From Dictyostelium discoideum (taxonomy: Eukaryota), in NCBI GenBank assembly GCA_000004695.1, contig CM000152.2:448001-512000 (forward strand): a DNA stretch of 64,000 nucleotides, in the 5' to 3' direction. Of the stretch, positions 708 to 58,485 are shown piece after piece. A model generated the notes under the pieces. The model had not been told where the DNA came from. It did not search any database and saw only the letters and a program-made list of their open reading frames with translations. Made by a program: the position numbers and the translations under genes. The first letter of the stretch is position 1, and each line of letters opens with the position of its first letter.

Positions 708-3460
<2,753 letters not shown>

Positions 3461-3538
3461 CTAAAATAAAATTAAATATTAATATTAAAAAAAAAAAAAA
3501 AAAAAAAAATAAAATTATTATTATTTAATATAAATTAC

Positions 3539-3787
3539 CCATTTCTCTATTGAAAGCAAAAGAATCTTGATGAGATTTAACATATGAAGCGATTTCAATT
3601 TGATGAGAGAATCTATACTTTTTAATGATTTCTAAATTATATAATGCAGTATGAGCAACTTCTTTCCAAGATTTTGAAAGATGTTTTAGTGTGAATTTTC
3701 TAGATTGAGAACATGAATCACAATAAAATTCAAATCTACTATCAGATGGCCCAGGTAATACTGTACTACCAACTAAATCTTTCATTT
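3539..3787 (-). CDS. Exon 4 of the same gene: second copy of the Cys/His module (PGPSDSRFEFYCDSCSQSRKFTLKHLSKSWKEVAHTALYNLEIIKKYRFSHQIEIASYVKSH).
   Basis: ORF 3525..3785 frame. Acceptor TTATAG at ~3788 is phase-compatible with the exon 3 donor (C+AA=Gln). The GGTAATT donor coincides with the ORF stop. Confidence 0.5.
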
Positions 3788-3889
3788 CTATAATTTTTTT
3801 TCAATTAAATATACATATGTTAGGTAAAGTGGGAGAGAAAAAAAAAAGATTAAAAAAATATAAATAAAAATAAATAATTAAATACATAC

Positions 3890-4126
3890 GAAAATTAATC
3901 ATTTTTGAACAAGATTTACAAGTTAGAGAATGATTACTATCTTGATCAATATAACCTTCCCATTGTTCACTACCTTTCCAAGTTAACAAACCTCTTTCAT
4001 CTTCGTCGATTGAATCACCATGTCTATAATTTGACCACATACCTGAATCACGTGCAAATGAAATGAAAATTTTTCTATTATATGATAATGTTGCTGTCAT
4101 AATATTTTTCATTTTTGAATGTAAAA
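3890..4126 (-). CDS. Exon 3 of the same gene: ...RKIFISFARDSGMWSNYRHGDSIDEDERGLLTWKGSEQWEGYIDQDSNHSLTCKSCSKMINF.
   Basis: ORF 3801..4112 frame. Acceptor AAG|TTTTAC at ~4127 is in phase with the exon 2 donor. Donor GTATGT is at 3889..3884. Confidence 0.5.
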
Positions 4127-4203
4127 CTTATTATTATTAAAAATAAAATTTATTAATAAATATTTTGTATTTTTATTAAAAATTATTATTATAAATTAAT
4201 TAC

Positions 4204-4455
4204 CTTTATCACGATCAGCCAATAACTCTTTTGAATGTTTATGTACATATTTAATGATTTCTCTATAGTGAGAGAATCTATATTTCTTTTCTCTTTCCAA
4301 ATTGAACAATGAGGTATGGATCATCTCTTTCCAAGTTTTAAATAAATGTCTGAAATAAAATTGACCTTTTGAACAATCAAAACATCTAAATTCATAATTT
4401 TTATCTTCAGGTCCTGGAATAACTTGGATGTTATTTGAAAGGAATACTTTACTTT
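4204..4455 (-). CDS. Exon 2 of the same gene: first copy of a Cys/His module (PGPEDKNYEFRCFDCSKGQFYFRHLFKTWKEMIHTSLFNLEREKKYRFSHYREIIKYVHKH).
   Basis: Acceptor TTTCCAG at ~4456 and donor GGTAATT at ~4203, in frame with exon 1 through a phase-1 junction (G+AA=Glu). The sequence is coding-like and is a clear paralog of exon 4. Confidence 0.5.
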
Positions 4456-4550
4456 CTGGAAATATTTGGAAAAAAAAATGAAAATAATTAACAAAAATAT
4501 GATCAAGAAATTAAAAAATAATAATAATAAATTAAAATTAAAATACTAAC

Positions 4551-4845
4551 CAACGTTTTGTTTGTTGTTACATTTACAACAAATTAATGAGACTGAACCA
4601 GTATATACTTTATCGTATAATAAATTATTTAATGGGTAGTCATCATCAATTGATACATGATGTTGTGATGTAATTAGTTGGAATGAAATATGTTGTTGTT
4701 GTTGTTGTTGTTGATGTTGATTTTGATGTTGATGTTGTTGTTGATGTTGTTGATGTTGTTGTTGGTGTTGTTGTAGTAGTTGTTGGTGTTGTTGTTGTTG
4801 TTGTTGTTGTTGCTGTGGTTGTTGTTGTTGTTGTTGTTGTTGATT

Positions 4846-4912
<67 letters not shown>

Positions 4913-4932
4913 GGTTGTTGTTGTTGTTGTGG

Positions 4933-4972
<40 letters not shown>

Positions 4973-5173
4973 GGTTGTTGTTGTTGTTGTGGTTGTTGTT
5001 GTTGTTGTGGTTGAGGTTGTTGTTGTGGTTGAGGTTGATGTTGTTGATGTGGTTGTTGTGGTTGATGATGGTGTTGTTGTTGTGGTTGCTGTTGATGTTG
5101 ATGTTGTGGTTGTTGCGGTTGTTGTGGTTGTTGCGGTTGTTGTTGTTGTGGATGATGATGATGATGATGATGA

Positions 5174-5227
<54 letters not shown>

Positions 5228-5813
5228 GGTTGTTGTTGTAGTTGTTGTTGTTGGTGTTGATGTTGTTGTTGTTGTTGATGTAGTTGGTGTTGATGTTGTT
5301 GATGTTGAATTTGGATTTGTTGATGTTGTAGTTGTTGATTTTGTTGTTGTTGTAGTTGTTGGTGATGTTGAAGTTGTAGTTGTTGTTGAATTTGGATTTG
5401 TTGTTGTTGTAATTGTTGTTGGATTTGTTGTTGGATTTGTTGGTTTTGGTGAACAGACATATGTGTGAGATGGTTTTGATGTTGTGGTTGATGTTGTTGT
5501 TGGATTTGAGATGGTGGAAATTGTTGGGAAATTGGTTGGTTGTTACCAACTTGTATAGTTTTTTCATTTTTTATTTGATTATCAAATTTAGTTGGAGATA
5601 ATTGTTGTGGACTTGTGTTGTTGTTATTGCTGTTATGATTGTTTGAAAAATTATTTTGAGATGATAAGGTTAAAACAGATGATTGAGAGGATTGTAATTG
5701 TGGAGGTGAATTTAAATGTTGAGTTGACGATGATAATTGGTTTGGAACATGAGGTTGTGATGAACTTAATTCATTATTATTATTTATATTATTATTACCT
5801 ATTATTGTTATTA

Positions 5814-5891
<78 letters not shown>

Positions 5892-5931
5892 CCATTTGTT
5901 TGGCCATTATTATTACTATTATTATTATTAC

Positions 5932-5962
<31 letters not shown>

Positions 5963-6339
5963 GTTGTTGTTATTGTTATTGCTATTATTATTATTATTGT
6001 TATTATTATTACTACCATTTATTCTATTATTATTATTATTGTGTAATGGTGGTTGCTGGATTTGTAATTGCTGAATATTATTCATAAATGATATCATTTG
6101 TTGGTTATTATTATTATTATTTAAAGATGAAGAGGATGATGAAGAAGATGATGAAGAGGATGGTGGTTGTGGTAATGGTACTTGGTTGTTGTTACTATTT
6201 ACAAAGATTGGGTCGTTTAGTTTATTTGTTTTATTATTGTTGTTCCAAATTGGTTCTTCCTTTTTATTCGATAAAGATAATAGTGATCCGATGTGAATAG
6301 AACCATTTGAATAATTATTATTATTATTTGAGTTGGAAC

Positions 6340-6394
<55 letters not shown>

Positions 6395-6535
6395 GTTGTT
6401 GTTGTTGTTGTTACTACCGCTATTATTATGATTAAAATCACTTGGTGTAGTTGATTTCGGATTTGCTAATGATAGCAATGAATATAAATCTTCGTGGTCG
6501 GGAACTGAATGAAATGATTTTAATGATTCATTCAT
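4551..6535 (-). CDS. Exon 1 of a large poly-N/poly-Q protein gene (whole gene 708..6535). Coding frame changes inside an (AAT)n tract near 5798-5830.
   Basis: ORF 5795..6535 (MNESLKSF..., poly-N/S) and ORF 4546..6018 (poly-Q, ...ICCKCNNKQNVG) overlap in different frames. Only the poly-N frame is plausible upstream of ~5830, because the other frame gives poly-I. The donor GGTTAGT at ~4550 coincides with the ORF stop. Upstream of 6535 is homopolymer intergenic DNA. Confidence 0.45.
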
Positions 6536-58381: not shown

Positions 58382-58464
58382 GCCGGCTTTGGCGCAATGG
58401 TAGCGCGATTGACTGTAGTAATATTAGTGATCAATCGGTTGCTAGTTCGAATCTGGCAAGCCGG
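58382..58464 (+). tRNA. tRNA-Tyr(GUA): tRNA-Tyr (anticodon GUA) with an 11-nt intron (58418..58428).
   Basis: Hand-folded cloverleaf: acceptor CCGGCTT/AAGCCGG, D-stem GCGC/GCGC with loop AATGGTA, anticodon stem ATTGA/TCAAT, loop CT-GTA-G then an intron after position 37, T-stem GCTAG/CTGGC with loop TTCGAAT, discriminator A, followed by TTTT. Confidence 0.85.
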
Positions 58465-58485
58465 ACTTTTCGTAAAAAAAATTAA

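Follow-up and report, generated by a model that had tools for sequence, protein, structure and literature searches.

We describe a tandemly duplicated domain in a long, minus-strand gene of Dictyostelium discoideum, within a 64,000-nucleotide stretch of genomic DNA (contig CM000152.2, forward-strand positions 448,001 to 512,000) that we call the window and whose first letter is position 1 of all coordinates below. The gene has the AT-rich, poly-Q/N-rich character of dictyostelid genomes. A preliminary description, made from the letters alone, had pointed to a repeated Cys/His motif of no assigned family in this gene and had proposed a nuclear regulator. Our analysis of profiles and structural models indicates that each repeat unit is a PHD-winged-helix (PHD-WH) cassette as in ASH2L and the Polycomb-like (PCL) proteins, with a single predicted zinc site whose first two ligands lie in the preceding exon. 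The gene and its repeat units are placed as follows, the gene limits being taken from a list of open reading frames (ORFs) and a splice model.

708..6535, minus strand: whole coding region of the poly-Q/N-rich gene, with the ATG at 6535 and the stop codon at 710..708.
4014..4593, minus strand: unit 1, predicted single-zinc PHD-like finger and winged helix (VSLICCKC...GMWSNYRHGD), spliced from 4593..4551, 4455..4204 and 4126..4014.
3348..3932, minus strand: unit 2, the paralogous cassette (HSLTCKSC...GMWSNFREGD), spliced from 3932..3890, 3787..3539 and 3451..3348.
3933..4013, minus strand: inter-unit linker SIDEDERGLLTWKGSEQWEGYIDQDSN, with a D-x-RGLL core kept in orthologues and predicted short strands.

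In a GT..AG splice model, a single reading frame is kept from 6018 to the stop at 708. The modelled exons on the minus strand are ..4551, 4455..4204, 4126..3890, 3787..3539 and 3460/3451..708, and the four introns between them (77-102 nt) are in phase 1 throughout. The limits of the repeat in the preliminary description, 3539..4455, agree exactly with this model, in which exon 2 begins at 4455 and exon 4 ends at 3539.

4456..4550, minus strand: intron 1, 95 nt, phase 1, GTTAGT..CAG, separating the two zinc knuckles of unit 1.
4127..4203, minus strand: intron 2, 77 nt, phase 1, falling between helix 2 and helix 3 in the winged helix of unit 1.
3788..3889, minus strand: intron 3, 102 nt, phase 1, at a position homologous to intron 1.
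3452..3538, minus strand: intron 4, phase 1, 87 nt long if spliced to the preferred acceptor and 78 nt if spliced to the one at 3461, at a position homologous to intron 2.

Intron 4 has two in-frame acceptors on the minus strand, TTTTAG at 3461 and TTGAAG at 3452. Splicing to the downstream one, with exon 5 from 3451, gives NREM-D-NIKNRLS, and the upstream one would add VFE. Because all four orthologues read NRE(M/I)DNIKN, which is reproduced by the downstream acceptor only, an intron that ends 9 nt further downstream, with exon 5 starting at 3451, is the most likely arrangement on this comparison. The spliced split codon at intron 3 encodes Q; the E of the read-through codon was used at that one linker position in five of the alignments, the two-unit structure query among them.

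The two units share 59/136 identities (43%, E=7e-38), which bears out the paralogy reported for exons 2 and 4, and the quoted motifs, GMWSN(Y/F)R(H/E)GD among them, are all present. At the DNA level an 84-nt core alone is still 76% identical, and a tblastn search of the 64-kb window finds these two units and no third. The repeat does include exons 2 and 4, as had been proposed, but it starts one exon further upstream in both copies, with SLICCKC (4590..4570, minus strand) at the end of the large exon preceding exon 2 and SLTCKSC (3929..3909, minus strand) at the end of exon 3. As each cassette is complete only once its three exons are joined, this organization gives indirect support for a single transcript. 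Introns 1 and 3 lie between the two knuckles and introns 2 and 4 between helices 2 and 3, and the two members of each pair share their alignment column and their phase. Dictyostelium purpureum keeps all four intron positions, and its unit 1 is 92% identical to unit 1 of the window and ~42% identical to unit 2. Given these homologous and conserved introns and the contrast in unit identities, the sequences indicate a tandem duplication of genomic DNA that copied the cassette together with its introns and that predates the divergence of the sampled dictyostelids.

Some further features of the units and their surroundings are visible in the translation. Both units are basic, with an isoelectric point (pI) of about 9.5 for the whole unit and of 9.8-10 for its winged helix. 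The D-x-RGLL(T/L)W core of the linker (3933-4013) is kept in orthologues, an RG(I/V) remnant follows unit 2 of three-unit paralogues, and in the two-unit model described below the linker strands comprise residues 161-163 and 169-171, at a predicted local distance difference test score (pLDDT) of about 80. Right after unit 2, at about 3130-3347 on the minus strand, there is an acidic, Ser-rich run, EIDDDGDDTDDSSSSSSLDEIDFDGVDPDE (pI about 4), and after it a basic K/S-rich patch, KSSKSFKKSKKSKKIKTKSLK (pI about 11), which may act as a nuclear-localisation signal or as a linker that binds DNA, and which recalls the basic linker that follows the PHD-WH of ASH2L.

The conserved positions of the family place the predicted zinc ligands on four Cys, two from each side of an intron.

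4570..4581, minus strand: first zinc knuckle of unit 1, C-x2-C (C5 at 4581..4579, C8 at 4572..4570), equivalent to PHD Cys3/Cys4 and present in 47/47 units.
4373..4384, minus strand: second zinc knuckle of unit 1, C-x2-C (C39 at 4384..4382, C42 at 4375..4373), equivalent to PHD Cys7/Cys8 and present in 47/47 units.
3909..3920, minus strand: first zinc knuckle of unit 2, C-x2-C, from the sequence and alignments.
3711..3722, minus strand: second zinc knuckle of unit 2, C-x2-C, from the sequence and alignments.

In an alignment of 47 family units that includes both units of the window, C5, C8, C39, C42 and N66 are the only invariant columns; D32, W56, L67, F75, F119 and W129 are nearly invariant, with W129 retained in 43/47 units, and G127 is retained in 33/47. 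C5-x2-C8 aligns with Cys3-x2-Cys4 of the second PHD finger (PHD2), which reads LQCCKC in MTF2, and with LQCGIC of ASH2L, and C39-x2-C42 aligns with Cys7-x2-Cys8 of PHD2. Of the first PHD zinc site there is no trace, in that no Cys is found within 30 residues upstream of either unit. The PHD H-x2-C is also absent, positions 13 and 16 being N/S and N/M in place of H/C; it is likewise missing from 34/47 family units, and human ASH2L, which aligns as LQCGICTKWFTADT, lacks the H and the C as well. Since the site-2 Cys are invariant while the site-1 ligands are absent, the unit is, on its conserved residues, a one-zinc "atypical PHD" with the zinc predicted on the four Cys of the second PHD site, and not a C2H2-like finger. 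A canonical two-zinc C4HC3 PHD was rejected, as the Cys1-x2-Cys2 and His5-x2-Cys6 ligands are absent. Judged by this conservation, each cassette very probably binds zinc, so that the putative zinc-binding module of the preliminary description stands while its predicted ligands become four Cys (47/47) and not His.

Profile and fold searches assign the unit to a named family, which the preliminary description had not been able to do. A profile of the two window units, searched against the PDB, matches MTF2 (2e-7), Drosophila Pcl (3e-5), PHF1 (2e-4) and ASH2L (4e-3). A dictyostelid-only profile of 16 units, which contains no PCL or ASH2 rows and is in sequence independent of those families, has MTF2 as its strongest match (5.4e-13), followed by Pcl (1.5e-9), ASH2L (8e-8) and PHF1 (5e-7), and these matches span both knuckles and the winged helix (profile positions 2-119). 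An AlphaFold2 (AF2) model of unit 1, built from the 47-row alignment, has a pLDDT of 90.7 and a predicted template-modelling score (pTM) of 0.85. In this model the knuckles form two beta-hairpins (strands 2-4/11-13 and 35-38/48-51) and the winged helix consists of helices 56-71, 77-92 and 100-114 with a wing hairpin at 119-121/128-131; that is, two beta-hairpin zinc knuckles are predicted to pack on a three-helix bundle with a beta-hairpin wing. A Foldseek search of the PDB with the model returns Pcl, PHF1, MTF2 or ASH2L in 17/17 matches at E<=1e-3, and the next-nearest folds after PCL and ASH2L are DNA-binding forkhead and linker-histone domains. A two-unit model of 330 residues shows the same fold twice (pLDDT 84.3, pTM 0.73). 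Sequence profiles and models together thus indicate that the unit is a PHD-WH cassette as in ASH2L and the PCL proteins.

The MWSNxRxGD motif, previously listed as a separate element, falls within this fold: MWSN is the second wing strand of the predicted winged helix, equivalent to G-x-W-G-L in relatives (G-Y-W-G-L in those of ASH2 type) and to L-F-G-L in PHF1/MTF2.

4014..4043, minus strand: GMWSNYRHGD, second wing strand of unit 1 (model strand 128-131) and the following turn, from the AF2 model.
3348..3377, minus strand: GMWSNFREGD, the same wing strand in unit 2, from the paralogue alignment and the two-unit model.

The preliminary description had named the assignment of the motif to a known non-zinc fold by profile searches as an outcome that would refute it. 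This turned out to hold by half, as it applies to the His-bearing part of the motif, which belongs to a winged helix without zinc, and not to the Cys part, which is one of a pair of zinc knuckles.

Among proteins of known structure, MTF2 is closest to the window cassette in sequence, and the N-terminal PHD-WH of human ASH2L (PDB 3RSN, 3S32) is closest in its one-zinc state. ASH2L has one cassette, with a longer helix1-helix2 insert than in the window units, followed by SPRY and the DPY30-binding helix (SDI), whereas the window protein has two cassettes and a 4CXXC_R1-like finger and no SPRY, and it is therefore not an ASH2 orthologue. In the PCL proteins (PHF1, MTF2 and Drosophila Pcl; PDB 5XFN-5XFR, 5OQD), PHD2 together with the EH winged-helix domain is homologous to the window cassette, but PHD2 is a full two-zinc C4HC3 finger while each window unit has one predicted zinc. 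PCL proteins also carry a Tudor domain, PHD1 and a C-terminal chromo-like domain, none of which a Pfam search finds in the window protein, and their W1 loop enters the major groove at CpG (PMC10606531). The corresponding loop in the window units, ARDSG or GRYTG, is three residues shorter than the lysine-rich PCL loop. As it lacks the Tudor, PHD1 and chromo-like domains and has no basic W1 loop, the window protein is not a PCL orthologue either. The winged helices of forkhead and of linker histone H1/H5 lack a zinc finger, show no detectable sequence similarity to the window unit and are only 13-21% identical to it when aligned by structure.

The gene encodes a second Cys-rich element downstream of the cassettes.

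1797..1961, minus strand: C-terminal Cys cluster CCLC..C..C..C-x2-C..C-x2-C, which retains Cys 1 to 8 of a zf-4CXXC_R1-type finger but not the terminal C-x-C-x2-C.

Previously called PHD/RING-like, the cluster instead resembles zf-4CXXC_R1: compared with the PF10497 regions of amoebozoan relatives, it reaches an hhalign probability of 96.3% (E=1.8e-9). The cluster alone has no match to PF10497 or any other Pfam family, and a PDB profile search with it returns weak RING and FYVE noise (E>=0.02). The zf-4CXXC_R1 family is defined by eleven signature Cys (PMC9915587). Each of the five dictyostelid sequences lacks the terminal C-x-C-x2-C. Because it has eight of the eleven Cys and no PF10497 match, yet strong profile-profile similarity, the cluster is on these comparisons best called a truncated derivative of zf-4CXXC_R1 (CDCA7-type) and not a member. 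Over its other 1,547 aa, the window protein matches no Pfam family (no SPRY, Tudor, chromo, PHD or RING), and in the Dictyostelium purpureum orthologue (P0001) Pfam finds no SPRY, Tudor, second PHD or chromo and no other domain.

Relatives were collected by searching the two-unit profile against 1.84e9 representative proteins, which gave 51 matches in four groups. The first comprises two-unit orthologues in Dictyostelium purpureum, Tieghemostelium lacteum, Acytostelium subglobosum and Heterostelium album (E-values 1e-60 to 1e-133), all annotated as hypothetical or uncharacterised. The second is a dictyostelid three-unit paralogue family, and the third consists of single-unit proteins from Planoprotostelium, Arcella, Ceratiomyxa and unnamed metatranscriptomes, the non-dictyostelid amoebozoan cassette proteins matching at E 1e-9 to 1e-14. 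Bona fide PCL and ASH2 (SPRY-containing) proteins form the fourth group at the weak end of the list (1e-5 to 1e-3); the true ASH2 matches P0032, P0038, P0045, P0049 and P0051 are recognizable by the SPRY start ...NSAPQ...GYRMA.

The domain content of the non-dictyostelid relatives varies. In Pfam scans, P0010 and P0014 (Planoprotostelium fungivorum PRP75952) have one cassette together with Chromo and a full zf-4CXXC_R1. In P0011 and P0015 zf-4CXXC_R1 alone is detected beside the cassette, and in P0013 Chromo alone, the sequence stopping at the start of a 4CXXC-type motif. P0009, from Arcella intermedia, combines one cassette with zf-4CXXC_R1 and RAMA (PF18755, E=2.4e-20), with no Chromo detected; RAMA is restriction-enzyme/adenine-methylase associated and adds a further DNA-modification-linked partner of the cassette. 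Ceratiomyxa P0016 has a CDCA7-type Cys cluster, judged by eye. A combination of chromo and class II zf-4CXXC_R1 was noted for an Acanthamoeba protein by Funabiki and colleagues, where the cassette was not reported (PMC9915587). By sequence, the nearest non-dictyostelid relatives of the window gene are these amoebozoan proteins with cassette, Chromo and zf-4CXXC_R1. They share with it the same single-zinc cassette and a homologous C-terminal Cys-rich finger, but they have one cassette, an eleven-Cys 4CXXC_R1 and usually a chromodomain, whereas the dictyostelid orthologues have two cassettes, eight Cys and no detected chromodomain.

Several observations were made on individual relatives. P0011 and P0014 have sub-threshold PEHE matches of the MSL1/KANSL1 type (20.7 and 19.6 bits, cut-off 34) C-terminal to 4CXXC_R1. 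The three-unit proteins P0005, P0006 and P0007 (Polysphondylium, Acytostelium and Tieghemostelium) have Ser/Arg-rich spacers between their cassettes and a conserved C-terminal region, ..IYDERIQ..GFL...EL.QLR.EI...EIPEL.GLEFRFL..SPI.LKQE, and the C-termini of P0008 and P0028 seem to carry a similar region; P0005 has no Pfam match. The deposited model of P0004 (Heterostelium album PPL_01241) is ~25 residues short between the knuckles of unit 1, where LTLSCIKC is joined directly to PDDKSYEFKC, probably through a mis-called exon boundary at the conserved intron. Its UniProt label, "RING-type domain-containing", reflects the 4CXXC-like cluster.

Taken jointly, the explanation that we favor, and hold to be quite probable, is that the gene encodes tandem PHD-WH cassettes of amoebozoan descent that serve as paired DNA- or nucleosome-binding modules in a chromatin regulator. 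In each cassette, the C-x2-C knuckle at the end of the preceding exon and the one in exon 2 or 4 would jointly hold a single zinc, equivalent to the second PHD site (Cys3/Cys4/Cys7/Cys8), the first site having been lost as in human ASH2L. The finger would pack on a three-helix winged helix, in which W-K-E..H-T-x-L-x-N-L-E forms helix 1, ..E-I..Y-V forms helix 2, helix 3 is encoded in exon 3 or 5, and the wing hairpin is F-x-S...G-M-W-S-N. The two basic cassettes may act as paired DNA- or nucleosome-binding modules, set among long disordered poly-Q/N regions in what would be a nuclear chromatin regulator. DNA binding has been described for the PCL winged helix (PMC10606531) and for the PHD-WH of ASH2L (PMC6895043). 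The nuclear regulator of the preliminary description is upheld in that the cassette family supports a chromatin-type protein, from which a nuclear role may be deduced. As for descent, the ancestor would be an amoebozoan family with one cassette, a chromodomain and a CDCA7-type zf-4CXXC_R1 finger, and the dictyostelid form would have two cassettes, no detectable chromodomain and a shortened 4CXXC_R1 finger.

Several points weigh against this explanation. With the Pfam model PF21198 (ASH2L-like_WH), unit 2 has no match and unit 1 reaches 15.1 bits (E=0.029), below a cut-off of 25 bits that is the operational threshold of one model and not a structural criterion; the relatives P0010, P0011, P0013 and P0015 exceed the gathering score (25.5, 26.4, 25.8 and 32.1 bits). 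The alignment behind the AF2 model of unit 1 held PCL and ASH2 rows, and the model is to that extent not fully independent of them. On the functional side, ASH2L without its PHD-WH still binds nucleosomes (PMC6895043), and DNA binding by the cassette is therefore not guaranteed. The W1-loop lysines are also not kept, the window units reading ARDSG and GRYTG where MTF2 has EIKKKK and PHF1 has EIKKRK. As the lysine-rich W1 loop is absent, CpG-specific DNA reading as in the PCL proteins appears unlikely from the sequence.

The same ASH2L result can be taken to suggest that the PHD-WH fold serves here as a protein- or histone-interaction scaffold, or binds RNA, instead of binding DNA. We consider this unlikely, as the units are strongly basic, the nearest folds beyond PCL and ASH2L are DNA-binding ones, and relatives join the cassette with the chromatin or DNA readers chromo and zf-4CXXC_R1. 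A different question is whether the gene might be orthologous to ASH2/Bre2, a subunit of COMPASS, or to a PCL-type PRC2 accessory protein, given that ASH2L and the PCL proteins provide the closest solved structures. The absence of SPRY, Tudor, second PHD and chromo from the rest of the protein and from P0001 in Pfam searches, the duplication of the cassette and the missing PCL W1 loop all argue otherwise, and true ASH2 and PCL proteins are separate and far weaker matches than the orthologues, which makes this orthology very unlikely.

A novel C2H2-like finger, with the C-x2-C in exon 2 or 4 and a pair of His further downstream as its ligands, would account for the regular Cys/His spacing and for the invariance of H51 and H61 within dictyostelids. 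Across the family, however, His retention is low (H51 32/47, H61 20/47, H77 12/47, H88 27/47) compared with the upstream C-x2-C (47/47), the His positions fall in a beta strand and in winged-helix helices of the unit 1 model (H51 in the strand that follows the knuckle, H61 within helix 1), and the solved homologous structures hold zinc on four Cys. The spacing also misfits the classical C-x2-4-C-x12-H-x3-5-H. It was given before as C-x2-C-x9-H-x9-H, which is correct for copy 2; copy 1 has x8 between Cys and His. With this spacing (C-x2-C-x8/9-H-x9-H) and variable His, a classical C2H2 finger was rejected, in agreement with the preliminary description, and Pfam zf-C2H2 has no match to the units at E<=10. 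We find the C2H2-like reading barely plausible. Next to no chance is given to a winged helix of another class (HARE-HTH or RNA polymerase delta-like) with the Cys pairs as an unrelated zinc ribbon; a HARE-HTH winged helix had been our first guess and was rejected on Pfam (PF05066) and on the best structural matches, which are not to ASXL or RNA polymerase delta.

Within the favored explanation of tandem PHD-WH cassettes, a more specific history can be imagined, in which the dictyostelid two- and three-cassette proteins are a repurposed form of an ancestral amoebozoan DNA-modification and heterochromatin reader (PHD-WH, chromo and CDCA7-type 4CXXC_R1). The chromodomain and the last 4CXXC zinc site would have been lost and the winged-helix cassette multiplied, producing a new kind of multivalent reader of the extremely AT-rich dictyostelid DNA or of nucleosome linkers. 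We give this a low probability; the evidence behind it consists of domain losses and gains, while links to DNA methylation status or AT-rich DNA remain hypothetical.

The PHD-WH domain itself is known, and the "unclassified motif" is this known domain split by an intron, with its first ligands in the preceding exon. What is new is an unannotated amoebozoan family that carries the cassette two or three times in tandem, together with a full or truncated CDCA7-type finger. The assignment, which opens no long-standing question, provides a fold and a biochemical hypothesis for a region labelled "hypothetical" in all five dictyostelid genera sampled, the window organism included, and it places the ASH2L-type one-zinc PHD-WH cassette also outside COMPASS and PRC2 accessory proteins. 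Dictyostelium chromatin biology thereby gains a candidate DNA- or nucleosome-binding regulator, in which the four Cys per unit, helix 3 and the wing are targets for mutation.

The ATG-containing ORF (6535..5795, minus strand) ends in AGG TAA, and the main ORF lies one base out of frame near 5797-5800; the two could be joined by dropping one G of the AGG or by splicing out a 35-nt GTAAT...TTAAG segment. The frame break thus reflects either a base error in an (AAT)n tract or an unusually short intron, and it makes the count of five exons provisional. The N-terminus, MNESLKSF..DLYSLLSLANPKS, matches that of P0001. At 4700-5300 and 2850-3080 (minus strand), poly-Q/H and poly-N stretches of >150 and >60 residues are encoded by very long repeats of (CAA)n/(CAT)n and (AAT)n, from which spurious long ORFs arise on either strand and in several reading frames. 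Elsewhere in the window, ARAGORN identifies an 84-nt tRNA-Thr (anticodon TGT) at 58383-58466 on the plus strand.

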